Source: Candidatus Eremiobacteria bacterium (GTDB taxonomy: Bacteria; Vulcanimicrobiota; Vulcanimicrobiia; Vulcanimicrobiales; Vulcanimicrobiaceae). Taken from it: DNA of 64,000 nt. Positions 38,369 through 54,357 of this stretch are shown here, one piece after another (within the stretch, counting starts at the first letter, position 1; every line of letters starts with the position of its first letter). Made by a program: the position numbers and the translations under genes. The notes beneath the pieces are model-generated. The model was not told where the DNA came from, did no database searches, and worked only from the letters and a program-made list of their open reading frames with translations. Location of the stretch: assembly GCA_963737065.1 (NCBI GenBank), contig CAVTRC010000001.1, forward strand, positions 2,016,001 through 2,080,000, in the 5' to 3' direction.

Positions 38369-38541
38369 GGGGGCCCCGCTGTAGCGGGGGGCGCGCAGCC
38401 GAAGGCGGAGTGCCTTTCAAACCTACGGGGTCCCCAAAACGCGAAGCGTCACGATGGGGACCCGCTGTAGCGGGGGCGCGCAGCCGAAGGCGGAGTGCCT
38501 TTCAAACTACGGGGTCCCCAAAGTGCGAAGCAGTTTGGGGG
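38369..38541 (+). repeat. Two tandem copies of a ~88-bp three-hairpin palindromic element upstream of lexA
   Basis: GGGG(C/A)CCCGCTGTAGCGGGGGCGCGCAGCCGAAGGCGGAGTGCCTTTCAAAC..TACGGGGTCCCCAAA occurs twice. Confidence 0.9.
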
Positions 38542-42601: not shown

Positions 42602-43426
42602 ATGCAAGTCGTTACAGCGGTCCTGCAGGCGCGCGCCTTGTTCGAAGTGATGCCACGTCCGCTTGGTTTCGTCCCCACAATGGGTGCGTTGCATGAAGGT
42701 CATTTGGCGCTGGCGCGGCGCGCGCGCGAAGCATCCGCCGGTGTTGCGGCTTCGATTTTCGTCAATCCGTTGCAGTTCGGCGCAAACGAAGATCTTCAAA
42801 CGTATCCGCGCGATCTCGAGAGCGACCGCGCGAAGTTCGCGGCTGCGGGTGTCGACGTACTGTTTCTTCCGGATCAAGCCTCGATGTATCCGCCTGATTT
42901 TTCGACAAGCGTCGATGTGGGCGAGATCGGCACGCGCTTCGAAGGCGCCGCCCGGCCAACGCATTTTCGCGGGGTGACGACGGTCGTGTCGAAGCTGCTC
43001 AATATCGTTCGTCCAGATACGCTCTACTTAGGACAAAAAGACGCTCAGCAAACTGCCGTGCTACGCCGGATGATTCGCGACCTCGCCATTCCGGCCACCG
43101 TCGTCATCGTGCCGACCGAGCGCGAGATCGACGGGCTCGCGCTCTCGAGCCGTAATCGCTACTTAGCGCCCGAAGAACGGCAAGCCGCACCGTCGCTACA
43201 CCATGCGCTCGAAGCGCTGCGCACGGCGATGCAGAACGGCAAGTCGAAGGCGGATGCTATCGCGGTTGCGCGAACGCGGCTCGATCCGCTCGCACGGGTC
43301 GACTATCTCGACGTCGTCGACGCGAATACGTTTGCGCCGATCGACGTGCTTGCACCGCCCGCATTCGTGATCGGAGCCGCGCGATTCGGCTCCACGCGGC
43401 TGCTGGACAATCTATGGATCGAATAG
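42602..43426 (+). CDS. panC: Pantoate-beta-alanine ligase
   Basis: PTMGALHEGH, FVNPLQF, GQKDAQQ, LSSRN. Confidence 0.96.
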   Translation: MQVVTAVLQARALFEVMPRPLGFVPTMGALHEGHLALARRAREASAGVAASIFVNPLQFGANEDLQTYPRDLESDRAKFAAAGVDVLFLPDQASMYPPDFSTSVDVGEIGTRFEGAARPTHFRGVTTVVSKLLNIVRPDTLYLGQKDAQQTAVLRRMIRDLAIPATVVIVPTEREIDGLALSSRNRYLAPEERQAAPSLHHALEALRTAMQNGKSKADAIAVARTRLDPLARVDYLDVVDANTFAPIDVLAPPAFVIGAARFGSTRLLDNLWIE

Positions 43427-44619
43427 ATCCGTTGCCCGGCGCCCGCGTCCTGCTCGGCGTCTGCGGCGGAATCGCGGCGTATAAGATTGCTTCGCTGACA
43501 AGCGCACTTGTTCAGCGCGGCGCCATCGTCGACGTCATGATGACGGCGGAAGCCGAGCACTTCATCGGATCGCTCACGTTCTCGTCGCTGACCGCGCGTC
43601 CGGTCTACACTTCGTTGTGGGATGCGCCCGAACACATTCCGCATATCCGTCTCGTGCGCGAAGCGGACGTTGCGGTCGTCGCACCGGCGACCGCCAACGT
43701 CATTGCGAAACTGGCGCACGGCATCGCCGACGATCTGCTGACCACGGCGCTGCTCGCGGCGCGCATTCCGGTACTCGTAGCGCCCGCGATGAACAGCGCT
43801 ATGTACGACGATGCGGCGACGCAGGCGAACCTGGACACGCTGCGCGCGCGCGGATATTGCTTCATCGACCCAGAGCGCGGCTTTCTCGCCGAGCGCGAGC
43901 CGGGTGTCGGACGTCTCGCCTCTGAAGAGCGATTGCTCGATGCGATTACGGACGTGCTGCACCGCAAAAAGTCGCTTGCGGGAAAGCGCGTTGCGATTAC
44001 CGCCGGTCCAACACGCGAAGCGTTCGATCCGATTCGCTTCATCAGCAATGCGTCGACCGGGTCGACCGGCATTGAACTTGCGCGCGAAGCATCGTTGCGC
44101 GGTGCGGACGTGACCTTGCTTCTTGGGCCGACCCTCCTCGAACCGCCGGCCGGTGTGCGCGTTGTCCGTTTCACGTCGGCGCAAGAACTCTACGAAGCGG
44201 CATTGCATGAAGCAACCGGCGCCGATCTAACGATTGCAACGGCAGCCGTTGCCGATTGGCGCCCCGCCGAGCGCGCCGAGTTGAAATTGAAGAAGACCGC
44301 CGACGATCTTACCGCACGGATGGTTCGCAATCCGGACGTCCTCGCGGCGCTCGGCGAGCGAAAAGCGCAGACGTTTCTCGTCGGCTTCGCCGCGGAAACC
44401 GACCTGCACGAAACGCACGCGCGCGAGAAGCTGACGCGAAAACATCTTGATGCCATCGTCGTGAACGACGTGCGCGGCGAACGCGGATTCGGGCGTGTCG
44501 AAAACACGTTGACGCTATTGTGGGGAGAGGACGGGCGCAAGAACCTCGGTACGGCGGCAAAAGCGCAACTCGCCGTGCGCCTCTTCGATGCGATTGAAGA
44601 GTTGATGCGATGTTCTTAG
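43414..44619 (+). CDS. coaBC: Bifunctional PPC decarboxylase/synthetase
   Basis: GGIAAYK, APATAN, PAMN, TAGPTRE, VGFAAET. Confidence 0.96.
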   Translation: MDRIDPLPGARVLLGVCGGIAAYKIASLTSALVQRGAIVDVMMTAEAEHFIGSLTFSSLTARPVYTSLWDAPEHIPHIRLVREADVAVVAPATANVIAKLAHGIADDLLTTALLAARIPVLVAPAMNSAMYDDAATQANLDTLRARGYCFIDPERGFLAEREPGVGRLASEERLLDAITDVLHRKKSLAGKRVAITAGPTREAFDPIRFISNASTGSTGIELAREASLRGADVTLLLGPTLLEPPAGVRVVRFTSAQELYEAALHEATGADLTIATAAVADWRPAERAELKLKKTADDLTARMVRNPDVLAALGERKAQTFLVGFAAETDLHETHAREKLTRKHLDAIVVNDVRGERGFGRVENTLTLLWGEDGRKNLGTAAKAQLAVRLFDAIEELMRCS

Positions 44620-45392
44620 CGATCGACGTCGGCAATACGGAAACGAAGCTCGGCATCTTCGAGGACGCCGCCGACGAGCTCGTGCATCATTGGCGCATCA
44701 ATACCGATGCACGCCGTACGGCGGACGAATACGGGGTGTTCTTCACGCAGCTTTTTGCGACCGCATCGTTGCCCGTGAACGCGATCGATGCGGTTGCGAT
44801 CGCAAGCGTCGTTCCGCGGCTCGACAACACGCTCGCCGGCGTCTGCGAGAAGTTCTTCAACGTGCGCGCGCACTTTCTCGAACCGCAGCGGCAGGACCTG
44901 ATCGAGATCCGCACCGAGCGTCCGGCGGAAGTCGGCGCGGATCTGGTCGCGGCGGCGATCGGCGGCCGGCAGCGCTACGGAGCGCCCTTGATTGTCGTAA
45001 GTTACGGTACGGCGACCGTCTTTACGGCGATTTCGCCGCAAGGCGAGTATCTCGGCGTTGCGATTGCGCCGGGCATCAATGTCTCGATCGACGCATTGGT
45101 CGGGCGAACCGCCAAACTTCCGCAAGTCGCACTCGAAGCGCCGGATCGCGCGATCGGCCGCAACACGATCGAAGCACTCCAAGCGGGATTCATGTACGGG
45201 TTCGTCGGCCAAAGCGAAGCGATCATCACGCGCATGCGGGCCGAGATGCAATACGATGCGCGCGTCGTAGCGACCGGCGGTCTTGCCGACGCCGTAGCGC
45301 GGCACAGTTCGCTCATCGAACGTGTCGATCCGAACTTGAGCCTTATCGGGCTGCAGTTGTTCTATACAAAGCTGCACGACGCCGGCACGTGA
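44610..45392 (+). CDS. coaX: Type III pantothenate kinase
   Basis: IDVGNT, VGAD, GTAT, ATGG. Confidence 0.93.
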   Translation: MFLAIDVGNTETKLGIFEDAADELVHHWRINTDARRTADEYGVFFTQLFATASLPVNAIDAVAIASVVPRLDNTLAGVCEKFFNVRAHFLEPQRQDLIEIRTERPAEVGADLVAAAIGGRQRYGAPLIVVSYGTATVFTAISPQGEYLGVAIAPGINVSIDALVGRTAKLPQVALEAPDRAIGRNTIEALQAGFMYGFVGQSEAIITRMRAEMQYDARVVATGGLADAVARHSSLIERVDPNLSLIGLQLFYTKLHDAGT

Positions 45393-45438: not shown

Positions 45439-46446
45439 ATGACCCCCGTCGTAGCGCCGCTCGCCGTCGGCGAGCACACCATTTGGCCTCCGCTCATTCT
45501 GGCGCCGATGTCCGGCGTAACGAACCGGACCATGCGTGCGCTCTATAAGCCCTTTGGGCTTGGTCTTACGGTGACCGAGTTCGTTTCGTCCAACGCGCTG
45601 CAGTACGGCAGCAAGCGGACGATGGAGATGATCGACCAGCACGGAATCGAGAAGCCGGTTTCGACGCAGCTCTGGGGCGACGACCCGAAGGTGATGGCGA
45701 GCGCGGCGAAGGTCGTGCGCGAATGCGGCGCGGACATCGTCGACATCAATTTCGGCTGTCCCGCCCCGAAGGTGACGAAGACGAACGGTGGCTCGGCATG
45801 TCTGCGCGACCTCGATCGCTGCGAAGCGATCATGGCGGACGTTGTCGAGGCCGTCGATTGTCCGGTGACGATGAAGATGCGTCTCGGCTGGAGCGAGGAT
45901 AAACTCGTGTACGTCGATGTCGCGAGGCGCGCCGAACGCGTGGGCATCAAAGCGGTGACGCTGCACGCGCGTACCGCGCGGCAGTTCTACAAAGGCACTG
46001 CCGACTGGGATCACATCAAACGGTTGAAAGCCTCCGTCGGCATTCCGGTTATCGGTAACGGCGATCTCGACGATCCGCACGTCGCGATGCAACGCATGCG
46101 CGATACGGGCGTGGATGCAATCATGCTGGGCCGTGCGACGTTGGGTAACCCGTGGTTGATTTCGCAGATTCGCGAATTGATGGAGGGCCGCGAAGCCCAG
46201 CCGGCGCCATCGGATGCGGACCGCTTGCGGTTCTGCATCGTGCACTACAAGCGCATGGTGGACGAATTGGGCGAAGCGCGAGCGGTTCCGCAAATGCGCA
46301 AACACGTCGCATTGTATCTGAAAGGCATTCCGCGCGCCGCGATTCTGCGCGAGCGAATCATGCGCATTCCAACCGCGCATGAGGCTGTCGGCGTCATCGA
46401 AGAGACGATCGAACGTCTGGAACGCGAGTGCTACGTTGCCGCATAA
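45439..46446 (+). CDS. dusB: tRNA-dihydrouridine synthase
   Basis: LAPMSGVT, DINFGCP, LHART, VIGNGD. Confidence 0.93.
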   Translation: MTPVVAPLAVGEHTIWPPLILAPMSGVTNRTMRALYKPFGLGLTVTEFVSSNALQYGSKRTMEMIDQHGIEKPVSTQLWGDDPKVMASAAKVVRECGADIVDINFGCPAPKVTKTNGGSACLRDLDRCEAIMADVVEAVDCPVTMKMRLGWSEDKLVYVDVARRAERVGIKAVTLHARTARQFYKGTADWDHIKRLKASVGIPVIGNGDLDDPHVAMQRMRDTGVDAIMLGRATLGNPWLISQIRELMEGREAQPAPSDADRLRFCIVHYKRMVDELGEARAVPQMRKHVALYLKGIPRAAILRERIMRIPTAHEAVGVIEETIERLERECYVAA

Positions 46447-46572: not shown

Positions 46573-46646
46573 CGCGCTCGGCGGGACTCGAACCCGCATC
46601 TCCGGCTTAGTCGGAACCGTGCTTTATCCAATTAAGCTACGAGCGC
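46573..46646 (-). tRNA. tRNA-like gene: Arg-type body, non-canonical anticodon loop CCGACUA (GAC at 34-36), no encoded CCA
   Basis: GCGCTCG TA GCTT AATTGGATA AAGC A CGGTT CCGACTA AGCCG GAGAT GCGGG TTCGAGT CCCGC CGAGCGC G gives a complete 74-nt cloverleaf. Confidence 0.8.
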
Positions 46647-46647
46647 T

Positions 46648-47934
46648 GTGATGCAATCACGCGATGGACAGTCGTTGACAACCGAGACCGCGCACGATCT
46701 TGCCGGCGAAGCGTTCGAGAATTACAAGCAGTACATTAATCCGCCGTTGGCGCGCGTGATGAAGCTCTCAGGCTCGCCGGTTGAAGTCCGCGCTTCGGGC
46801 ACGACGATTTGGGATCAGAACGGTAAGGCGTATCTCGATTTCGCCGGCGGCTACGGCGTCTTCACGCTCGGACACTCGCATCCGCGTGTGATTGCCGCGG
46901 TCCGCGAGCAGATGGAGTCGATGTCGCTTTCGGGCAAGACGATGTTCAACGTTATGCTCGGACGAGCGGCGAAACGTCTCGCGCAACTCGCGCCCGGAGA
47001 TCTCCAGTATTCATTTTGGTGCAATAGCGGAACCGAAGCGGTAGAAGGCGCGATCAAGCTCGCGCGTGCCGCAACGGGACGGATAAAGATCGTTGCAACG
47101 CGCGATGCATATCACGGAAAAACGATCGGCGCCCTGTCGATTAGCGGTCGCGAAGCTTTTCAAACGCCGTTTCGTCCGCTTCTGGCTGACGTGGCGCACG
47201 TCGATTTTGGAGACGCATCCGTGCTCGATGACGCGCTGCGCGATGCGGCCGCATTCATCGTGGAACCCGTGCAAGGCGAAGGCGGCGTAAACGTCCCGCG
47301 CGACGGCTATCTGCGCGCCGTTCGCGATGCGTGCGATCGCACCGGCGCGGTCTTTATCGCCGACGAAGTGCAAACGGGTCTCGGCCGCTGCGGTTACCGG
47401 TTCGGTTGCGATCGCGACGGCGTCGTTCCCGACGTCATGACGCTCGCGAAGGGACTCTCCGGCGGCGTCATTCCGGTCGGGGCGTTCATCGCACGCCCCG
47501 ACCTGTGGAATCGCGCGTACGCGAAGCAGCCGCTCGTACACACGTCGACATTCGGCGGAAGCGAAATCGCATGCGCCGCCGCGCTCGCCGCGATGGACGT
47601 TCTCGAGGACGAGGACCTCATCGCAAACGCGCGCGATCGCGGTGCACAATTGCTCGACGGATGCCGTGCGCTTGCAACGCAATTTCCTCACGTGATTCGT
47701 GAAGCGCGCGGCGTCGGGTTGCTCGTCGGCGTTGAACTCACGAACGAGGGCTACGGCGGCTGGATCATTCCGGAAATGTTGAAAGCCGGCGTGACGGCCG
47801 CGTGGACGCTGAATCAGCAGCGCGTTATTCGCTTGGAGCCGCCGTTGGTGGTCACCGGCGACGAAGTACAGTACGCGCTCGCGGCATTGCGGGCAGGGGT
47901 AACAACCGCCGGTGAGAAGCTAGGGCGCTTGTAA
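46648..47934 (+). CDS. Class III PLP aminotransferase (putrescine/acetylornithine aminotransferase-like)
   Basis: YLDFAGGYG, IADEVQTGLGRCG, LAKGLSGG, HTSTFGG; true start may be TTG 46675. Confidence 0.9.
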   Translation: MMQSRDGQSLTTETAHDLAGEAFENYKQYINPPLARVMKLSGSPVEVRASGTTIWDQNGKAYLDFAGGYGVFTLGHSHPRVIAAVREQMESMSLSGKTMFNVMLGRAAKRLAQLAPGDLQYSFWCNSGTEAVEGAIKLARAATGRIKIVATRDAYHGKTIGALSISGREAFQTPFRPLLADVAHVDFGDASVLDDALRDAAAFIVEPVQGEGGVNVPRDGYLRAVRDACDRTGAVFIADEVQTGLGRCGYRFGCDRDGVVPDVMTLAKGLSGGVIPVGAFIARPDLWNRAYAKQPLVHTSTFGGSEIACAAALAAMDVLEDEDLIANARDRGAQLLDGCRALATQFPHVIREARGVGLLVGVELTNEGYGGWIIPEMLKAGVTAAWTLNQQRVIRLEPPLVVTGDEVQYALAALRAGVTTAGEKLGRL

Positions 47935-47941
47935 ATCGATC

Positions 47942-48376
47942 ATGCCCTACGTCGAAACCACGATTGCGATCGCGGCGCCTGCGCGCGCGGTTTACGAGCT
48001 CGCGAAAGATCAGGAGCGGTTCCCGCAATTCATGCCGGACGTCGAAACCGTGTCGGTTCTCGAACGCCATGCGGATCATTGGATCACACGCTGGAAGACG
48101 CTTGTGGAAGAAGCGCCGATCGAGTGGACGGAAGAAGATCGTTTCGATGACGACGCATTGCGCATCGATTACAAACTGCTCGAGGGCGATCTCGATAAGT
48201 TCGAAGGCGCGTGGACATTCGAAGAACGTGACGGCATAACGCACGTGCTGCTCGGCGTCGACTACGATTTCGGCGTGCCGACGCTCGCGCAGTTGATCGG
48301 CCCGACCCTAGAGAAAAAGGTCAAGGAAAACAGCGAGATGATGCTCGCAGCGCTCAAACGCGAGGCTGAAAAGTGA
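47942..48376 (+). CDS. SRPBCC/START (polyketide cyclase/Coq10-like) lipid-binding protein
   Basis: APARAVYELAKDQERFPQFMP, EGDLDKFEGAW. Confidence 0.88.
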   Translation: MPYVETTIAIAAPARAVYELAKDQERFPQFMPDVETVSVLERHADHWITRWKTLVEEAPIEWTEEDRFDDDALRIDYKLLEGDLDKFEGAWTFEERDGITHVLLGVDYDFGVPTLAQLIGPTLEKKVKENSEMMLAALKREAEK

Positions 48377-48674
48377 TGGGGGCCCCAAAGGCCTTTGGGG
48401 GGGCGCGCAGCCGCAGGCGGAGTGCCTGTCAAACAGAGGGGTCCCCGAAGTGCGGAGCACTTTGGGGATGAAGGAAAACAGCGAGATGATGCTCGCAGCG
48501 CTCAAACGCGAGGCTGAAAAGTGATGGGGCCCCAAAGGCGTTTGGGGGGCGCGCAGCCGCAGGCGGAGTGCCTGTTAAACAGAGGGGTCCCCGAAGTGCG
48601 GAGCACTTTGGGGATGAAGGAAAACAGCGAGATGATGCTCGCAGCGCTTAAACGCGAGGCTGAAAAGTGATGGG
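48323..48674 (+). repeat. A-B-A-B-A array: three copies of the 58-bp SRPBCC gene end separated by two palindromic elements
   Basis: A starts at 48323, 48471, 48617; B at about 48378-48467 and 48526-48613 is homologous to the lexA-upstream element. Confidence 0.92.
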
Positions 48675-49794
48675 CACCCAAAGCGCTCGGCCGAAATTCT
48701 GCTTCGTCATTCACCCGCTTTCGCTGCTGGACGTTGCCCGTTATGAGCCGGGCGCGGCGGGCAAGGGAGAGCCGATCATTCGCAAGATTCTCGAGTGGAT
48801 GCCGTCGTACGCTGCGGTGCATGTGACCGGCGTGCGCACGCCGGACGGTCGCGAAACGGAAGGGTGGTTCGTGGCCGCGCCGCTGCTGCCCGAGCAGATC
48901 ATGGAGTTGCCGCGCGAAGAGGTGTACAAGCGAATCGTGCGCGCGATCGAGATCGGTGCGGAACTCGGCGCAAATGTTGCGGGACTCGGGGCGTTCACCG
49001 GCGTCGTCGGTGACGGCGGCATCACGATTGCGCAACGGTCGCCGATCCCGGTGACGACGGGAAACTCGCTCACGATTGCCGCCGGAATCCAAAGTCTATT
49101 CCGCGCCGCGCGCGAAATGGAGATCGATCCGTCGACGTCAACCGCCGTCGTCGTCGGTGCAACGGGTTCGATCGGAAGCGCATGCGTGAAGCTCATTGCG
49201 TCGCGCGTCAAAGACGTGATTCTCGTCGCGCGCAACGCCACGCGTTTAGCGAAGTTTCACGAAGAGGTGCGCGACGAGCTTCCGTGCGACTCGACGTACA
49301 CGACCGATATTCCGGACGCCGTGCGCCGTTCGCAATTGATTCTTACCGCGACATCGTCGACGCAAGATATCATCGAGCCCGAAGATTTGCAAACCGGCGC
49401 GGTCGTCTGCGAACTATCCCTTCCGCACGACGTCAGCCGGCGTGTTGCGTTGGAGCGTCCCGACGTCCTCGTCACCGAAGGCGGCAACATGTGCGTGCCG
49501 GGTGCGCCTCGATTCGAACGCGTCCGTGAACCCGGAACGGATTTCGATTTGAATCTCCCTCCGCGCACCGCACTCGCCTGCATGAGCGAAACCATGGTGC
49601 TCGCACTCGAACGCCGCTTCGAGTCGTATACACTCGGCCGCGGCATCGATGTAGCGAAGGTCGTCGAGATCGAAGAGATGGCCGGACGCTGTGGGTTCAC
49701 GCTCGCCGGCATGCGTGCATTCGACGCAGCGATTACGCGCGAAAAAGTAACGGCGACCCGAGAAGCCGCCGCCGCACGGCGCGTCGCTGTATGA
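48670..49794 (+). CDS. Acyl-ACP reductase-like protein (fatty-aldehyde-forming AAR family; often annotated shikimate dehydrogenase-like)
   Basis: FVIHP, GLGAFT, TTGNSLT, VVGATGSIG, ALACMSETMVLAL resemble cyanobacterial AAR motifs including the catalytic-Cys region. Confidence 0.75.
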   Translation: MGTQSARPKFCFVIHPLSLLDVARYEPGAAGKGEPIIRKILEWMPSYAAVHVTGVRTPDGRETEGWFVAAPLLPEQIMELPREEVYKRIVRAIEIGAELGANVAGLGAFTGVVGDGGITIAQRSPIPVTTGNSLTIAAGIQSLFRAAREMEIDPSTSTAVVVGATGSIGSACVKLIASRVKDVILVARNATRLAKFHEEVRDELPCDSTYTTDIPDAVRRSQLILTATSSTQDIIEPEDLQTGAVVCELSLPHDVSRRVALERPDVLVTEGGNMCVPGAPRFERVREPGTDFDLNLPPRTALACMSETMVLALERRFESYTLGRGIDVAKVVEIEEMAGRCGFTLAGMRAFDAAITREKVTATREAAAARRVAV

Positions 49795-49835
49795 AGCCTG
49801 GTACGGCGCCGCCGCATCGCGGTTCAGCCGTTGCT

Positions 49836-49986
49836 CGACGAGGTCCCGCTGCATGATCGCTCGCGCCGCCATGTTCTTTAGGCGCGCCCTAGGGGCGTTT
49901 CAAGCGCACCGAGTTCTGTCGCGCGCCATGCACGGGGGGCCCCACAACGTGGGGGGCGCGGAGGCTCGGCCGGAGCGCCGTTCAAA
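49836..49986 (+). repeat. Extended (~150 bp) palindromic element, copy Q
   Basis: Aligns with a single 1-nt gap to 52717-52862; its 3' part matches the lexA/SRPBCC element core. Confidence 0.85.
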
Positions 49987-50892
49987 ATGAAAAAAATCGT
50001 GTCGGTGTCGCTTGGCTCGTCGACACGCGATCATCGCGCCGTCATCGATCTCATGGGCGAGGACTTCGATATTTCACGCGAAGGTGTCGACGGCAAATTG
50101 GACGTGGCGATCAAACGGGTCGAGGAGCTCGACGGGAAGGTCGATGCGATCGGGCTCGGCGGGATCGACGTCTACCTGTATGCAGGATCGAAGCGGTATG
50201 CGTTGCGCGACGGCTTACGTTTGCTCAATGCGGCGAAAACTACGCCGGTCGTTGACGGAAGCGGTCTCAAGAACACACTCGAACGCGAAGCGGTCCGATA
50301 TATGCAAGACGACCTGCACATCGATCTTCGCGGGAAAAAAGTGCTGATGGTGAGCGCGCTCGACCGCTTCGGTATGGCGCAGGCGCTCGTCGACGCCGGT
50401 GCGGATGTGCTCTTCGGTGACTTCATCTTCGCGCTCGACAAAGACATGGCGGTGCGCGATCTCAAGACATTCGAAGAGATGGCGGAAAAATATCTCCCGG
50501 ACGCCTGCAAACTGCCGTTTCAATTTTTTTATCCCACAGGGAAGAAACAAGAGAAGCCGCCCGAGCCGAAGTATCCGCAGTACTACGACGAAGCCGACAT
50601 CATTGCGGGCGACTTCCATTTCATGCGCCAGTTCATGCCGCGTCGCCTCGACGGAAAGATCGTGTTGACCAACACCGTTACGCAAGCGAATATCGACGAA
50701 CTGCGCGATCGCGGCGTTACGATGTTAATCACCACGACGCCCGACTTCGAAGGCCGTTCGTTCGGAACGAACGTCATCGAAGCGGCATTGCTCGCGTTCC
50801 TCGGCAAGCGCTGGGAAGATGTGACGCCCGCGGACTACGAGCGCGTGTTGCGGGAATTGCGTCTGCGTCCGCGGGTCATCTCGCTGAATTGA
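49987..50892 (+). CDS. Conserved hypothetical protein (commonly annotated 'quinate 5-dehydrogenase')
   Basis: VSVSLGSS.RDH, DAIGLGG, PVVDGSGLKNTLE, GRSFGTNV. Confidence 0.8.
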   Translation: MKKIVSVSLGSSTRDHRAVIDLMGEDFDISREGVDGKLDVAIKRVEELDGKVDAIGLGGIDVYLYAGSKRYALRDGLRLLNAAKTTPVVDGSGLKNTLEREAVRYMQDDLHIDLRGKKVLMVSALDRFGMAQALVDAGADVLFGDFIFALDKDMAVRDLKTFEEMAEKYLPDACKLPFQFFYPTGKKQEKPPEPKYPQYYDEADIIAGDFHFMRQFMPRRLDGKIVLTNTVTQANIDELRDRGVTMLITTTPDFEGRSFGTNVIEAALLAFLGKRWEDVTPADYERVLRELRLRPRVISLN

Positions 50893-51398
50893 TCGTCGGC
50901 GTCGTTTCCGACACGCACCTTCCGCGCTTCGGTTGCGAGTTGCCGCCGGCGCTCGTGCGCGGCTTGCGAACGGCGAACGTCGACGTCATCGCGCATTGCG
51001 GCGATTTGACGGAACTGATGGCGATCGACCTACTCCGGGAGATCGCGCCCGTCGTTGCGGTCGCCGGCAATAACGACGCGAAGCAGCTGCATAAAGAGCT
51101 GGGCGAGCGCAAAATCATCGAAGCGGGCGACGCGCGCATCGGCGTCGTGCATGGCCACGCCGGGAAGGGACGCTCAACCGCCGACCGCGCGTTCAATGCG
51201 TTCACCGATGAGGCGGTCGACGTAATTCTGTTCGGTCATTCGCACATTCCATATCGTGCGCGGCGCGACGGCGTACTGCTGTTCAATCCGGGTTCGCCTA
51301 CCGACAAACGGCTAAATCCCGCATATTCGTATGGGATCGTGCGCGTCGACGGCAAGCGCGTGCGCGCCTCACATCGCTTCTATCTCTCGAAGAAGTAA
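50889..51398 (+). CDS. YfcE/MJ0936-family metallophosphoesterase
   Basis: SDTH, HCGD, GNND, HGH, FGHSH, NPGS. Confidence 0.9.
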   Translation: MIVGVVSDTHLPRFGCELPPALVRGLRTANVDVIAHCGDLTELMAIDLLREIAPVVAVAGNNDAKQLHKELGERKIIEAGDARIGVVHGHAGKGRSTADRAFNAFTDEAVDVILFGHSHIPYRARRDGVLLFNPGSPTDKRLNPAYSYGIVRVDGKRVRASHRFYLSKK

Positions 51399-51404
51399 GG
51401 CCGA

Positions 51405-52013
51405 GATGGCGAGCATATTGCGATGCGTGCTCGCGTACATACCTCGGTACGCCGAGCGGCTTTGCGGAGAACCAAACGGACACGCTCCCCTACGTCGGCA
51501 CGTTGCTGGGCGGGATGGTGGCGCAGTGCGATTGTGGTGACCGCGCTCGTATCCACGCTGACGACGCTCTGGACGACGATTTTGTACCTGTCGCGGTCGG
51601 CATTTGCGATGGGCCGCGACCGGCTGTTGCCCCGCGCGCTCGGCGAACTCGACCGGCGCGACGAACCGCTGTGGTCGCTCGCGGTCGTGGCCGTCCTCGT
51701 GACGGTATGCGAACTGGTTACCGGCTTTTCAAAGACGGCGACCGATCAACTTCAGCTCGTGCTCAATGCCAGCTCGGTTTTCCTCGGCCTGCTATTCGTG
51801 TTATCCGCCTTCGCAGCCGTGCGGCGGTTCAGGCACGACCGTAGCGCATCGTTGAGCAGCGTTATCATTCCTTCGGTCGGCGGCATCGCGTTGCTCGGCG
51901 TTCTCGCAGCAACGATCGCGGTCGAAGACCCCACCCTCCGCTGGTATGCGTGGTCGGGCATCGTCTTGGGTATACCGTTCGCACTCTGGCGCGGTCGGGT
52001 TCTGCGAGGGTAG
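51405..52013 (+). pseudogene. C-terminal half of an APC-family amino-acid permease (5'-truncated, frameshifted)
   Basis: SRSAFAMGRDRLLP motif and 5-6 TM helices; no room for the N-terminal half after the upstream gene. Confidence 0.65.
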
Positions 52014-52163: not shown

Positions 52164-52688
52164 TTGAACGAAAAAGAGATTATACTCACCGCCGAAGGCC
52201 TGGCGAAACTCCAGAACGAGCTCGATGAGCTCAAAACCGTCCATCGCAAAGAGGTCAACGACCGGATACGCCAGGCGAAAGAGTACGGTGACCTGAGCGA
52301 AAACGCCGAGTACGAGGATGCCAAGCAAGAGCAGGCGTTCATCGAAGGCCGTATCCTCAAACTCGAAGCGATGATTCGTAACTCGCGCATCATCGATGAA
52401 TCCGAATACGCAGCCGACGAAGTTCACTTGGGTGCGACCGTCAAGGTCAAAGACCTCAAGAACAACGACAGCTACGAGTTTCACATCGTCGGATCAGCGG
52501 AAGCGGACCCAACCGCGAAGCGCATCTCGAACGAATCGCCCCTCGGCCGCGCGCTCATCGGTCACAAGAAGGGCGAGACGGTCGACGTTTCCACGCCGCG
52601 CGGCGTCGTGAAATACAAGATCGAAGCGATCAAGAACGGCAACGGCGCAGTCGCGCCCGCAAAGAAGGCTGCAAAAAAAGCGTCTTAG
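52164..52688 (+). CDS. greA: Transcription elongation factor GreA
   Basis: YGDLSENAEY, ISNESPLGRALIG. Confidence 0.97.
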   Translation: MNEKEIILTAEGLAKLQNELDELKTVHRKEVNDRIRQAKEYGDLSENAEYEDAKQEQAFIEGRILKLEAMIRNSRIIDESEYAADEVHLGATVKVKDLKNNDSYEFHIVGSAEADPTAKRISNESPLGRALIGHKKGETVDVSTPRGVVKYKIEAIKNGNGAVAPAKKAAKKAS

Positions 52689-52716: not shown

Positions 52717-52862
52717 CGACGAGGTCCCGATCTATGAACCTTCGCGACGTACCGTCTTTTAGGCGCGCCCTAGGGGAGAGCTTCGTGTTCCTCACTTCTG
52801 TCGCGCGTCATGGTTAGGGGGCCCCACGAAGTGGGCGGCGCCGAGTCCGGGGCGGAGCGCCT
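52717..52862 (+). repeat. Extended palindromic element, copy K, overlapping the lysS 5' end
   Basis: Homologous to 49836-49986; partial extra CGACGAGGTTCCCG at 52691. Confidence 0.85.
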
Positions 52863-54357
52863 TACGACCGGGAAAAGTGAAGCTGCGCTTGTAGCGGCCA
52901 GACGCCAAAATCTGGCCGCTTTGCGTTCGCGCGGTTGCGACCCGTTTGAAGCGCGCCGCTTCACCGTCGATACGACCGCGGAGCAGTTGTTGCGCCAGTA
53001 TGAAGTGCTTGACGTCGGTCAGCATGCCGAGTCCGAGAACTGGAACATCGCCGGACGATTGATGTCGATCCGCACCGCCGGCAAAACACTTTTCGCCGAT
53101 CTGCACGACCGCACCGGCCGCCTGCAACTCTACGTTCGCAAAGATGAACTCGGCGACGAGCGGTTCGCGCAGTGGAACGATTTGGACCGCGGCGACATCA
53201 TCGGCGCGACGGGTTTCATGTTTCGTTCGAAAAAGGGCGACTTGACGCTGCACGTTCGTTCGTTCGAAATACTTGCAAAAGGATTGATGCCGCTGCCTGA
53301 TAAGTGGCATGGGCTGCAAGACGTCGAAAAGCGCTATCGGCAGCGGTACGTCGATCTCATCGTCAATTCTGAGGTTCGCGACACGATGATGATGCGCAGC
53401 CGCATCTTCGCCGAGGCGCGCCGCTTCATCGACGGCCATGGTTTCTACGAATGCGAAACGCCCACGCTGCTTCACGTGGCCGGGGGCGCAGCCGCGCGGC
53501 CGTTCCTAACGCACGTCAACGCGCTTTCGGGTGAGGAGATGCAACTTCGCATTGCGACCGAGTTGAATCTCAAGCGATTGATCGTCGGTGGAATGGAGCG
53601 CGTCTACGAGATCGGGCGAATTTTCCGCAACGAGGGCATCGACACGACGCACAATCCTGAGTTTACGATGCTCGAACTGTATGCGGCGTACTGGGACGTT
53701 CACGACATGATGGAGTTCAATGAAGCTTTGATCGCGCATCTCGTGAACGTGGTGAGCGGCGGCGACGATAAGCTGACCGTCGGCGAGCGCACGATCTCAT
53801 TTGCGCGTCCGTTCAAGCGCATCTCGTACCTGGACGGCATCGCGCAACATTCCGGTGGCCGATTCACCCGCGAACGTCTGCTCGATGCGACCGCGGCGGA
53901 CGAAATTCTAAAAGAACTCGAGTTGCCGAAGTCGCCGACGCACGGACACGCCCTCGATAAAATCTTCGAACGGGTGTTGGAGCCGCATTTGATCGAGCCG
54001 ACGTTCGTCATGGACTATCCCGTCATCATTTCGCCGCTTTCGAAGCGGAAGGCCGGTGACGCCGACCTGGTCGATCGCTACGAACTGTTCTGCAACAACA
54101 TGGAGATTTCGAACGCATTCACCGAGCTGAACGATCCGGACGATCAGCGCGCGCGCTTCGAAGCACAAGTCCGCGAACGCGCCCAAGGAGACGAAGAGAT
54201 TCCCCATCCGGATTGGGATTTCGTGCGGGCGCTCGAGTACGGTATGCCGCCGACGGCCGGCATCGGGATCGGCATGGATCGCCTCGTCATGCTCCTGACG
54301 AACAACACCTCGATCCGCGACGTCCTGCTCTTCCCGCTCCAGCGGCAGCACGGATAA
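52810..54357 (+). CDS. lysS: Lysyl-tRNA synthetase (class II)
   Basis: RYRQRYVDL, GGAAARPF, FRNEGID..HNPEF, YGMPPTAGIGIGMDRL. Confidence 0.97.
   Translation: MVRGPHEVGGAESGAERLTTGKSEAALVAARRQNLAALRSRGCDPFEARRFTVDTTAEQLLRQYEVLDVGQHAESENWNIAGRLMSIRTAGKTLFADLHDRTGRLQLYVRKDELGDERFAQWNDLDRGDIIGATGFMFRSKKGDLTLHVRSFEILAKGLMPLPDKWHGLQDVEKRYRQRYVDLIVNSEVRDTMMMRSRIFAEARRFIDGHGFYECETPTLLHVAGGAAARPFLTHVNALSGEEMQLRIATELNLKRLIVGGMERVYEIGRIFRNEGIDTTHNPEFTMLELYAAYWDVHDMMEFNEALIAHLVNVVSGGDDKLTVGERTISFARPFKRISYLDGIAQHSGGRFTRERLLDATAADEILKELELPKSPTHGHALDKIFERVLEPHLIEPTFVMDYPVIISPLSKRKAGDADLVDRYELFCNNMEISNAFTELNDPDDQRARFEAQVRERAQGDEEIPHPDWDFVRALEYGMPPTAGIGIGMDRLVMLLTNNTSIRDVLLFPLQRQHG

Follow-up and report, generated by a model that had tools for sequence, protein, structure and literature searches.

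What compound is made by a gene cluster that encodes a class III aminotransferase (g1), a START-like protein (g2), an AAR-like reductase (g3) and a protein named 'quinate dehydrogenase' (g4)? The initial annotation proposed conversion of an acyl thioester via an aldehyde to an alkylamine. We analyzed these genes within the window, a stretch of 64,000 nucleotides from a soil bacterium of Eremiobacterota, a little-known phylum and not Deinococcus-Thermus. The four genes probably convert a carrier-bound fatty-type acid or acyl thioester to an aldehyde and then to an amine, and we tentatively propose that they form one module in which a hydrophobic substrate yields a primary amine, an alkylamine for a cell-envelope lipid.

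Organization of the gene cluster

All four genes were confirmed as co-oriented open reading frames on the plus strand (Table 1), with coordinates exactly as initially annotated. The first three had been described as tightly coupled, but only g1 and g2 are close (7 nt), the g2/g3 and g3/g4 intervals being 290 and 192 nt, respectively. The relatives show tight packing of the whole set, overlaps of 4 nt being typical at g2/g3 and g3/g4. The conserved upstream neighbor is dusB: most Eremiobacterota loci have it directly 5' of g1, and many Bacillota loci have it upstream of g4. In loci of both groups, greA is located 3' of the module. The YfcE-family gene is probably outside the module, because its match was confined to the closest relatives (L002, L003 and L033 only, of 80 loci). 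Just 3' of the module lies a partial gene for a transporter of the basic amino acid/polyamine type (51423-52013). Profile searches of the window detected no PKS, NRPS or pig genes among the neighbors, which are housekeeping genes, and neither ACP, ligase nor lipid-assembly gene was found within the cluster.

Table 1. Features of the g1-g4 locus and its flanks (positions in the window)
Feature	Position	Strand	Evidence or remark
panC	42602-43426	+	Upstream context; NCBIfam 275.5 bits, curated cut-off 212.75
coaBC	43414-44619	+	Upstream context; NCBIfam 413.8 bits, curated cut-off 219.7
coaX, type III pantothenate kinase	44610-45392	+	Upstream context; NCBIfam 278.2 bits, curated cut-off 233
dusB, tRNA dihydrouridine synthase B	45439-46446	+	TIGR00737 357 bits, cut-off 293
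tRNA-Val(GAC)	46573-46646	-	Rfam tRNA 55 bits; ARAGORN
g1, class III (omega-type) aminotransferase, 428 aa	46648-47934	+	PF00202 E 3.4e-97
g2, SRPBCC/START-like small protein, 144 aa	47942-48376	+	PF03364 72.9 bits
146-bp tandem repeat, 2.5 copies	48323-48683		TRF 96% matches, score 671
g3, predicted AAR/PigE-N-type NAD(P)H-dependent thioester reductase (COG5322 family), 375 aa	48667-49794	+	
Intergenic insertion between g3 and g4, ~190 bp	49795-49986		Alignment with L033, L002, L003
g4, uncharacterized 'quinate 5-dehydrogenase'-named protein, 301 aa	49987-50892	+	
YfcE-family phosphodiesterase	50889-51398	+	TIGR00040 106 bits; overlaps g4 stop by 4 nt
greA	52164-52688	+	Downstream context; NCBIfam 204 bits, cut-off 145
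lysS	52810-54357	+	Downstream context; NCBIfam 627.6 bits, cut-off 468

The predicted thioester reductase g3 and aminotransferase g1

The g3 protein matched the N-terminal reductase part (positions 46-355) of the NCBIfam PigE model with E 2.2e-58. The comparison with AAR, suggested at first annotation, gave E 1.9e-23 for the model TIGR04058 (83 bits, far under its 449.7-bit cut-off) and E 1.1e-14 for the structure 6jzq, with the Cys aligned, next to E 5.6e-40 for PigE (4ppm). Both the GxTGxIG motif (GATGSIG) and the proposed catalytic Cys (LACMSE) are indeed kept; in the alignment, the latter shares its column with the Cys in FACFAE of the solved AAR and in GCMAE of PigE, and G164, G167, I169, G170 and C305 are invariant in 34 sequences. 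The prediction of g3 as an AAR/PigE-N-type thioester reductase with Cys305 as the catalytic residue holds. As claimed before, the window lacks an aldehyde-deformylating oxygenase, and PF11266 was unmatched across the whole genome (95% complete), indicating that the aldehyde does not feed alkane synthesis.

For g1, the match to Aminotran_3 agreed with the class III aminotransferase assigned before. Scores against NCBIfam models were 418 bits for putrescine aminotransferase (cut-off 612) and 415 bits for positions 368-730 of PigE, and those against PDB were E 1.1e-103 for YgjG (4uox) and E 1.1e-88 for residues 393-743 of PigE (4ppm). At the sequence level, the assignment as a class III aminotransferase of the PigE-C/putrescine-aminotransferase-like type holds.

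Together g3 and g1 correspond to the two halves of PigE/TamH/KecF-type enzymes, here on separate genes, and reproduce both domains of PigE, which reportedly reduces a thioester and then transaminates the aldehyde (PMC8341465). The proposed thioester-aldehyde-amine logic was thus supported, and since the chemistry has this precedent, the statement that the gene set is biochemically uncharacterized could not be kept as such: thermophilic TAm-AAR fusions have been characterized (PMC10829540). Fatty amine formation was described for the related TA-reductase enzymes TamH (PMC9594044) and TabE plus TabA (bioRxiv 10.1101/2025.08.11.669332), and fused TA-reductases yield C12 amine or polyketide amines (PMC9594044, PMC6498172, PMC10829540). 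As far as the accessible text of these papers goes, a hydrophobic acyl chain is the substrate of every characterized member named (PMC8341465, PMC9594044, PMC6498172, PMC10829540). Pigment pathways already feature this pairing of enzymes, whereas here it constitutes a phylum-wide core together with two uncharacterized helper proteins, g2 and g4.

The predicted AAR-fold partner g4

Because no Pfam or NCBIfam model matched g4, 'quinate dehydrogenase' is a mere database name. The AF2 model of g4 (pLDDT 95.8, pTM 0.92) is two-lobed, and the best fold match of this predicted structure was AAR, which the initial annotation had named for comparison (6jzq_A, Z 13.7, 244 residues aligned). The invariant residues of g4 include no Cys and no Gly-rich nucleotide motif; such a predicted AAR-like fold without conserved Cys or Gly-rich motif is new. 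Also new is the fusion of g4 to g3-type reductases in many proteins. Four of five long g4 proteins tested were g4-g3 fusions, about 85 of 93 long proteins are 600-755 aa without a domain of any other family, and all 37 aligned carry an invariant GATGxI and a Cys in the second half. These fusions support the proposal that g4 would be a genuine partner of g3. In one close relative (P0392), the gene call for g4 also includes a permease domain.

Some Bacillota have, next after g4, a degenerate remnant of g3 that lacks the nucleotide motif and an alignable Cys region, and therefore g4 has a role that does not require active g3; in some, g4 is directly beside greA. These arrangements could point to g4 as the core of a housekeeping role connected with translation or transcription factors, such as EF-P modification, to which g3, g2 and g1 were added in particular lineages. 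The same is suggested by g4 being the most conserved element and able to stand alone, by its position between dusB and greA-lysS in Bacillota and Eremiobacterota, and by an ORF of 184-199 aa that begins at the g4 stop in 33 Thermus-type loci (EF-P in one locus scanned). In B. subtilis, 5-aminopentanol is built on EF-P by a reductase and a class III aminotransferase paralogue. We nevertheless regard this function as quite unlikely: the dusB, greA, lysS and efp neighbors represent widely conserved synteny that requires no functional link, where g4 is fused, the partner is overwhelmingly a g3-type reductase, and one shared modification chemistry is unlikely since the EF-P tip is of Arg-type in the Thermus locus (KLGRGGA) and of Lys-type in the source genome (KPGKGAA).

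Conservation of the module

Among 81 sampled Eremiobacterota genomes (18 families), g4 was detected in 80 and g2 in all 81, and as read from the coordinates the two lie at most 4 kb apart on one contig in 79. This near-universal presence, as a core and single-copy feature of the sampled phylum, is a new observation. Co-conservation of the four genes was borne out by 33 of 38 Eremiobacterota-type loci with all four; four of the remaining five are cut by contig ends, and one (L032) has the upstream flank without g1 or g2.

The closest characterized relatives, PigE, KecF/PP_2782 and TamH, all belong to secondary-metabolite pathways (PMC8341465, PMC6498172, PMC10829540), and the module might likewise release a polyketide-type chain reductively and aminate it, with cyclization to an alkaloid in the style of prodigiosin, tambjamine or koreenceine. 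This is very improbable, because its presence in 80-81 of 81 genomes and its housekeeping synteny are unlike accessory biosynthetic clusters, and because no PKS, NRPS, ACP or PigD/PigB-type gene lies near it.

Of 42 more distant loci, 7 also have all four genes. Outside the phylum, a g4-g3 pair without aminotransferase or START protein is the commoner arrangement (20 of 42), with hosts including Thermoanaerobacter, Halonatronum, Clostridium thermobutyricum and many Clostridia. We know of no alkylamine lipid from these hosts. Such pairs would fit an aldehyde as the end product of g3/g4, or an alcohol, diol or ether made from it, the adjacent aminotransferase serving a different pathway. It is hardly to be expected, however, given that g1 is of the PigE-C type and is a neighbor in 33 of the 38 loci from the phylum, mostly 0-14 nt from g2, and that independent fusions of an aminotransferase with a g3-type reductase adjoin g4 in L047 and L073. 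On the g4 tree, the four-gene form occupied 37 rows within a clade of 41 (support 97), and by this phylogeny is essentially one clade.

Relation to beta-alanine supply

The genes panC, coaBC and coaX are directly upstream, and beta-alanine chemistry is compatible with a thioester reductase plus an omega-transaminase: g3/g4 might reduce malonyl-CoA or malonyl-ACP, and g1 might transaminate the resulting malonate semialdehyde to beta-alanine for CoA, replacing aspartate decarboxylase where PanD is absent. Of 41 Eremiobacterota genomes sampled, a single one gave a match to PanD (PF02261), and the source genome gave none (control, 8 of 14 known genomes positive). Among g4-g3-only genomes PanD occurred in 4 of 5, compared with 1 of 5 and 0 of 2 in further sets of four-gene genomes. 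As the four-gene form is essentially one clade, this anticorrelation is close to a single event, and PanD and the module occur together in G015, in the genome of L068 and in both genomes with aminotransferase-reductase fusions. Moreover, two group II PLP decarboxylases in the genome with weak similarity to PanP (129 and 127 bits, below cut-off) could make beta-alanine, the coaX-dusB-...-greA-lysS synteny is kept also without the aminotransferase, and the START-like protein and the known substrates of the family favor hydrophobic ligands. Beta-alanine supply is thus an unlikely function.

Substrate and proposed pathway

The START-like assignment of g2 holds: the protein is a member of Polyketide_cyc/SRPBCC (E 3.7e-20), which over residues 1-140 matched T. 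thermophilus TTHA0849 (PDB 2d4r, E 3.8e-21). The cavity of TTHA0849 is reportedly very small, about 18 cubic angstroms (PMC13525633). This could speak for the same chemistry on a polar amino-acyl or short functionalized thioester, giving a diamine, polyamine or other small amine instead of a lipid, as could the putrescine aminotransferases as best matches of g1, the transporter fragment downstream and the permease domain in P0392. Against it, all g1 scores are under the putrescine aminotransferase cut-off, PigE, a hydrophobic-aldehyde enzyme, scores nearly equally, the transporter is a fragment absent in most relatives, and a polar-substrate reductase of the g3 family is not described in the accessible text of the literature cited. 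A small amine therefore appears rather unlikely, and a hydrophobic alkylamine is our tentative choice of product.

In the proposed alkylamine pathway, g3 would load an acyl group from the acyl-ACP or acyl-CoA pool of the cell on Cys305 and reduce it with NAD(P)H to the aldehyde, like AAR and the N-domain of PigE. With the same predicted fold, g4 would be non-catalytic or differently catalytic and complexed with g3, probably for substrate or carrier recognition. The reactive hydrophobic aldehyde would be held or passed on by g2 and transaminated to the amine by g1. The substrate would be a medium- or long-chain hydrophobic acyl group, and the alkylamine might be a building block of a cell-envelope lipid, since the module is core and single-copy in the phylum and not in a secondary-metabolite cluster. 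The pathway is supported by the family and intact motifs of g3, the type of g1, the co-conservation, the 4-nt overlaps, the fusions and the predicted fold of g4; the small TTHA0849 cavity, the top score of g1 for a diamine aminotransferase and the lack of lipid genes in the cluster count against its hydrophobic-lipid part.

In a control search of 14 genomes (E<=1e-10), the AAR model matched in only three, two of them Thermus thermophilus and Deinococcus radiodurans. Both species are producers of N-glyceroyl-alkylamine glycophospholipids (PMC3398001). Thermus also has homologues of g4 and of g2 (TTHA0849). As the organism belongs to Eremiobacterota, these lipids are an analogy only, which lends some support to the alkylamine-lipid idea. 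The analogy loses some weight because g4 stands alone in Thermus-type loci, its stop overlapping efp, with none of g3, g1 and g2 within 8 kb, and because g4-g3 pairs without aminotransferase are common in Clostridia. In favor of the idea, the sole cultured representative of the phylum has 12 polar lipids of unassigned identity, and none of the standard phospholipids was identified in it (PMC9758169). The accessible part of that report mentions no aminolipid for Vulcanimicrobium, which is weak counter-evidence, since an N-acylated amine would not stain.

Sequence elements of the source locus

The tRNA-Val(GAC) gene, on the strand opposite to g1, ends 1 nt ahead of the g1 start codon. The insertion of ~190 bp between g3 and g4 is specific to the source genome among those compared; it is missing in three relatives (L033, L002 and L003), in which the stop of g3 either overlaps the start of g4 or directly adjoins it. 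The g2-g3 gap consists of the 146-bp repeat unit, present 2.5 times and duplicating the 3' end of g2 and the start of g3. Each unit holds an element of ~70-90 nt dispersed in the genome, the inner 91 nt giving 17 matches within the same genome.

Organization of the four-gene region

The region carries four co-oriented genes, here designated g1 to g4 and together the module: g1 for a class III aminotransferase, g2 for an SRPBCC/START-like protein, g3 for a thioester reductase of the AAR/PigE-N type, and g4 for a protein named 'quinate 5-dehydrogenase' in databases. The initial annotation described the first three genes as tightly coupled. This does not hold for the present DNA, in which g1 and g2 are separated by 7 nt but g2 and g3 by 290 nt, with a further 192 nt between g3 and g4. 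Except for this spacing, the observation of the gene group is real. Since related loci usually show a 4-nt overlap at both the g2/g3 and g3/g4 junctions and 0–14 nt between g1 and g2, the ancestral arrangement is a compact four-gene operon, and small repeats have been acquired at the junctions in this genome.

Genes and other features in and around the four-gene region
Feature	Position	Strand	Size or location	Description
g1	46648-47934	+	428 aa	Class III aminotransferase (PF00202)
g2	47942-48376	+	144 aa	SRPBCC/Polyketide_cyc protein
g3	48667-49794	+	375 aa	PigE-N/AAR-type reductase
g4	49987-50892	+	301 aa	Without Pfam/NCBIfam match
Tandem repeat	48323-48683		g2-g3 gap	146-bp unit, 2.5 copies, 96% matches
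~190-bp insertion	49795-49986		g3-g4 gap	Missing in three close relatives, whose g3 stop and g4 start overlap
tRNA-Val(GAC)	46573-46646	-	Between dusB and g1	Terminates 1 nt ahead of the GTG annotated as g1 start codon
Transporter fragment ORF	51423-52013		196 aa	Similar to APC-type arginine/agmatine or basic amino acid/polyamine transporters in their C-terminal third alone (~265-412 of 445)

Each unit of the tandem repeat has a G+C-rich element flanked by copies of the terminal 54 nt of g2 and the opening bases of g3, and its repetition leaves two decoy g2 C-terminal coding ends with stops upstream of g3. The inner 91 nt of the unit (48378–48468) gave 17 matches in the same genome, some of them arrayed, including two in the window at 38386–38540. 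The dispersed G+C-rich element, of about 70–90 nt and with internal palindromes, is sometimes arrayed at spacings of about 97 bp and occurs, among other places, at C2:108252-108519. In appearance it resembles REP/MITE-type repeats. In relatives, dusB runs directly into g1. The transporter ORF downstream of g4 is probably a gene fragment; in one close relative (protein P0392), g4 was called jointly with a permease domain. In three Eremiobacterota loci (L015, L016, and L030), g2 and g3 stand about 1.1 kb apart, with an extra 364-aa gene between them (L016:5750-6844), for which a weak Methyltransf_9 (CmoB-like) match was obtained (E 1.4e-12).

g3 and g1 as a split reductase and aminotransferase pair

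The g3 protein matched the N-terminal positions 46–355 of the NCBI model for PigE (NF053554) with E 2.2e-58 and 198 bits. The match to the model for cyanobacterial acyl-ACP reductase (TIGR04058, positions 45–335) was weaker, with E 1.9e-23 and 83.3 bits, below the cut-off of 449.7 bits, and by that model g3 is not a long-chain acyl-ACP reductase equivalog. The same order was observed for solved structures, with E 5.6e-40 for residues 50–355 of PigE (4ppm) and E 1.1e-14 for AAR (6jzq). The GATGSIG sequence of g3 at residues 164–170 was aligned on GATGDIG of AAR, and G164, G167, I169, and G170 were invariant among the 34 sequences of the g3 alignment. C305, within LACMSE, is aligned with the Cys residues of FACFAE in AAR (6jzq) and GCMAE in PigE (4ppm), and is also invariant in the 34 relatives; in Synechococcus AAR, the catalytic Cys is reported to be C294 (PMC10829540). 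The GxTGxIG and catalytic Cys motifs named in the initial annotation were thus right, as both are aligned in solved structures and invariant in the relatives. As judged from its sequence, g3 is assigned to the AAR/COG5322 acyl-thioester reductase family, the family motifs being kept.

For g1, the class III aminotransferase model PF00202 gave E 3.4e-97 and 326 bits against a gathering score of 30.5. The C-terminal part of PigE was matched by this gene, with 415 bits for positions 368–730 of NF053554 and E 1.1e-88 for residues 393–743 of 4ppm, and the scores stayed below the cut-offs for putrescine aminotransferase (NF008570, 418 bits vs 612; TIGR03372, 367 bits vs 658). Both PigE-type domains are therefore present, but as separate genes with g2 in between (198 bits for g3 and 415 bits for g1; cut-off 850). 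The g2 protein matched Polyketide_cyc with E 3.7e-20 and 72.9 bits against a gathering score of 23.4, and its best solved relative is the START-like protein TTHA0849 of Thermus thermophilus HB8 (2d4r), a full-length homologue (E 3.8e-21, residues 1–140).

Several known systems follow the proposed chemistry, in which g3, with g4, would reduce a thioester to an aldehyde and g1 would convert the aldehyde to an amine. PigE of the Serratia prodigiosin MAP pathway was first taken as a plain transaminase; Couturier et al. showed a thioester to be an intermediate and argued for reduction by the N-terminal domain from its AAR homology, and PigE is reported both to reduce the thioester and to transaminate the aldehyde (PMC8341465). 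Its AAR-like reductase at the N-terminus and class III aminotransferase at the C-terminus correspond to g3 and g1, but PigE is one polypeptide encoded in a pigment cluster, whereas here two genes are split by g2, accompanied by g4, and set in housekeeping synteny. TamH of tambjamine YP1 is described as a transaminase–thioester reductase di-domain that turns an activated fatty acid into an amine (PMC9594044), and KecF of koreenceine as an aminotransferase that carries COG5322 at its C-terminus (PMC6498172). Prout et al. characterized PP_2782 and three fusions of the thermophiles Thermaerobacter and Thermincola for their transaminase activity, mapped AAR C294 onto them, and described transamination of aliphatic aldehydes in vitro by the thermophilic fusions (PMC10829540). 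These TAm-AAR fusions (TamH, KecF/PP_2782, and Tmar_2123/Tfer_2018) share with the module a transaminase paired with a COG5322/AAR-type reductase, but they are fused, in the order of transaminase then reductase; the main text of PMC10829540 makes no mention of a g4 partner or a START protein ('quinate' occurs 0 times). The same TAm-AAR architecture was found in proteins of 875 and 911 aa encoded directly after g4 in two loci from other genomes (L047 and L073).

Stand-alone enzymes acting in the same sequence are described for tambjamine BE-18591 of Streptomyces, in which the acyl-ACP reductase TabE and then the omega-transaminase TabA give a C12 fatty amine (bioRxiv 10.1101/2025.08.11.669332). 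TabE is, however, described as having an aldehyde-dehydrogenase fold, unrelated to g3, and the TabE/TabA pathway as having its own ACP and thioesterase. Cyanobacterial AAR, which works with aldehyde-deformylating oxygenase (ADO), belongs to the same family as g3, with the same nucleotide motif and catalytic Cys, and is the best fold match of g4; it differs in that g3 reaches 83 bits against the cut-off of 449.7, g4 has no conserved Cys, and the genome lacks ADO. The absence of ADO, noted at first for the window, extends to the whole genome, in which no match to PF11266 was found. Altogether, the logic of thioester to aldehyde to amine is well supported by homology, with published precedent in fused form. 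Since PigE, TamH, KecF, PP_2782, and the thermophilic fusions have been described, the original statement that the gene set is not biochemically characterized went too far as regards the enzyme pair. The novelty lies in the split form, found across the phylum and embedded among housekeeping genes, with two uncharacterized partners, g4 and the TTHA0849-type START protein. As natural split enzymes, g3 and g1 would be of use for fatty acid-to-amine biocatalysis.

g4 as a probable AAR-fold partner of g3

The g4 protein gave no match at E ≤ 0.01 to any Pfam or NCBIfam model, including the Shikimate_DH/AroE models. No Gly-rich NAD(P) motif was detected, the consensus of 67 sequences at the expected loop position being SAxDRxGMA. 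The database name of shikimate/quinate 5-dehydrogenase was rejected for the lack of a model match and of a Gly-rich motif, and for a fold similarity of only Z 8.1–9.6, below that to AAR. An AlphaFold model made with 67 sequences was obtained at pLDDT 95.8 and pTM 0.92. The best whole-length fold match of this model was AAR (6jzq_A), with Z 13.7 and rmsd 4.5 for 244 residues over 3–301, and Foldseek gave TM 0.50 for the same structure. Carmabin synthase came second with its AAR-like terminal domain (9e4s, Z 12.2), followed by glutamate, shikimate, and quinate dehydrogenases with Z about 8–10 and periplasmic binding proteins with Z 8–9. The carmabin domain, a putative terminal amidation domain, is described as an NAD-binding domain with an invariant Cys close to the NAD (bioRxiv 10.1101/2024.10.28.620694); it is an NRPS/PKS megasynthase domain that keeps this Cys, whereas g4 is without it. 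In the 67 sequences, no Cys was found among the columns that are invariant or at least 90% conserved.

A comparison with AAR had been suggested at first for both g3 and g4. Likeness to AAR was found for g3 by HMM and by alignment with solved structures; for g4 it stands by fold, and fails by HMM and by the missing Cys. No similarity was detected between the profiles of the g4 and g3 families (hhalign probability 0.2), and g4 can therefore be called a paralogue of g3 by fold only. On the basis of the model, g4 is predicted to be an AAR-fold protein without catalytic apparatus, widespread in Terrabacteria. The conserved polar residues S8, R31, D90, K95, R127, D145, D209, K224, R257, and N262 suggest a ligand site. 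At E ≤ 0.001 the family comprises 907 cluster representatives, a number that falls to 214 at E ≤ 1e-30; a search of plasmids gave no g4 match.

Gene fusion then links g4 with the reductase. In four of the five long g4 proteins checked, a PigE-N/AAR-type domain comes after g4; in the fifth, g4 comes after an alpha-oxoamine synthase of BioF/serine-palmitoyltransferase type. A g4 part was present in 93 proteins of 528–2000 aa, and about 85 of these are 600–755 aa long and carry no foreign domain; many of this size are labelled 'predicted amino acid dehydrogenase', and several, among them proteins of roughly 725 aa, come from Chloroflexota. The GATGxI motif and the Cys were kept in the second half of all 37 long g4 proteins aligned. 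Because g4-g3 fusions exist, the protein sequences support the view that g4 works with g3, as had been proposed for the 'quinate dehydrogenase'-annotated protein.

In one locus, g3 and g4 form a single 680-aa frame (L007:6864-8906), in an order opposite to that of the common g4-g3 fusions; a sequencing error is possible. Another locus considered as a g3-g4 fusion ORF, L032, was discarded, as g3 lies in another frame. A biotin link of g4, considered from fusions with BioF-like and BirA proteins and from accB-accC beside Thermus g4, was also rejected, as these are single proteins each, attributable to neighbour read-through or generic family resemblance.

Distribution of the module and its gene neighbourhood

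The host is not a Deinococcus-Thermus genome, and the closest g3 proteins are named Eremiobacterota/Vulcanimicrobiota (Baltobacteraceae, Vulcanimicrobiaceae). Distribution within the phylum was analysed for 81 Eremiobacterota genomes from 18 families and 41 genera, the present genome included. g2 was detected in all 81 (E ≤ 1e-15) and g4 in 80 (E ≤ 1e-20), the exception being G026. As read from coordinate tables, 79 of the 81 genomes have the two genes within 4 kb of each other on the same contig; this does not apply to G026, nor to G014, in which they are on different contigs.

For wider comparison, 80 loci were drawn through g4, one genome per species, by a pattern made from the 14 of 67 aligned g4 sequences that share GRSFGTNV, so that the draw is biased towards that motif. 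The Eremiobacterota type, with g4 at least 68% identical, accounted for 38 of the 80, and all four genes were present in 33 of these. A contig end truncates four of the remaining five loci, and the fifth, L032, has the upstream flank but lacks g1 and g2. The remaining 42 loci are distant (g4 below 60% identical): seven carry all four genes, 20 only g4 and g3, and 13 only g4 with the queries used, and in two (L047 and L073) g4 is followed by the 875- or 911-aa aminotransferase–reductase fusion. Neighbours of the module here are dusB, yfcE, greA, lysS, panC, and coa genes, and the order coaX-dusB-[module]-greA(-lysS) is common to Eremiobacterota and Bacillota loci. If the reading of g3 and g1 as an amine-forming pair is true, a whole, barely cultured phylum would have, as core and vertically inherited primary metabolism, a module for reductive amination that is otherwise known from pigment and alkaloid pathways alone.

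In nine Bacillota-type loci, greA directly follows g4. In six others (L041, L062, L071, L080, L123, and L153; Bacillota, Caloramator and relatives), g4 is followed by a g3 remnant of 245–347 aa, which matched the g3 profile with E from 6e-9 to 7e-3; where the alignment covers the nucleotide motif, the sequence is IADAENVLG or a similar one, and no alignment was obtained over the Cys region. As g4 stands alone or beside a decayed g3 in some loci, its role is partly independent of an active reductase, that is, it does not always need one as neighbour.

With panC, coaBC, and coaX located just upstream of the module, g3 might instead act on malonyl-CoA/ACP, followed by g1 as omega-transaminase, to supply beta-alanine for CoA. 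The distribution of PanD agrees with this proposal, in that among 41 genomes sampled from the phylum PanD was found in a single one, which is not the present genome, while the same search matched eight of 14 controls; PanD was also present in four of five genomes with g4-g3 only, against one of five and none of two further four-gene genomes. On the g4 tree (FastTree, 106 rows, those with flanks too short to classify being left out), however, the four-gene form falls in one clade with support 97, making up 37 of its 41 rows. The anticorrelation with PanD therefore comes close to one evolutionary event. Moreover, PanD and the module are found together in G015 and in the genome of L068, both genomes with the fused aminotransferase–reductase also have PanD, and two group II PLP decarboxylases that could supply beta-alanine are encoded in the present genome. 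We consider a beta-alanine pathway very improbable. That PanD is generally missing from the phylum, with panC present here, is a separate and testable gap in CoA biosynthesis.

Relation to alkylamine lipids of Deinococcus-Thermus

The initial annotation proposed a long-chain alkylamine lipid as the product of thioester reduction by g3 and amination by g1. In T. thermophilus HB8, an acidic glycophospholipid is reported to contain an iso-heptadecyl alkylamine amide-linked to glyceric acid, as in D. radiodurans (PMC3398001). A full-text literature search found no published gene assignment for the alkylamine of Thermus or Deinococcus glycophospholipids. Among 14 control genomes, a match to the AAR model (E ≤ 1e-10) was obtained in three, namely Synechococcus elongatus (true AAR), T. 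thermophilus, and D. radiodurans. The Thermus match is not g4, which has no match to that model. A g4 homologue is represented by P0288, 'quinate 5-dehydrogenase [Thermus thermophilus]', in a cluster of 251 sequences, and occurs also in T. scotoductus, T. oshimai, and others. With this homologue, the AAR-model match, and TTHA0849, Thermus has relatives of all three distinctive genes, g2, g3, and g4.

The co-occurrence with producers of alkylamine lipids that the initial annotation asked for was seen in Thermus for these three genes, but the g4-g3 pair is also common in Clostridia and Chloroflexota. We know of no alkylamine lipid from Clostridia or Chloroflexota with this pair. A long-chain alkylamine lipid may be the product, with some new circumstantial support. 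In its widest form, the proposal would make the module a gene set for long-chain alkylamines of N-glyceroyl-alkylamine-type glycophospholipids, common to Deinococcus-Thermus and present in all Eremiobacterota; the polar lipids so far unidentified in that phylum would accordingly be based on alkylamines, with g4 as a new non-catalytic AAR-fold subunit family widespread in Terrabacteria. We regard this whole as unlikely. If the reading of g3 and g1 as an amine-forming pair holds, the module gives candidates for the origin of the alkylamine in Thermus and Deinococcus glycophospholipids, a long-open question.

Within 8 kb of Thermus-type g4, none of g1, g2, and g3 was found. In L096, the Thermus-type locus scanned, arginase and alpha/beta hydrolase genes precede g4 and EF-P, which overlap by 4 nt (L096:8001-9454), and accB, accC, nusB, and folD come next. 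The idea of a role in EF-P modification was weakened, as the EF-P loop residues differ between the Thermus locus and the present genome. In 33 Thermus-type metagenome loci, an ORF of 184–199 aa begins at the g4 stop.
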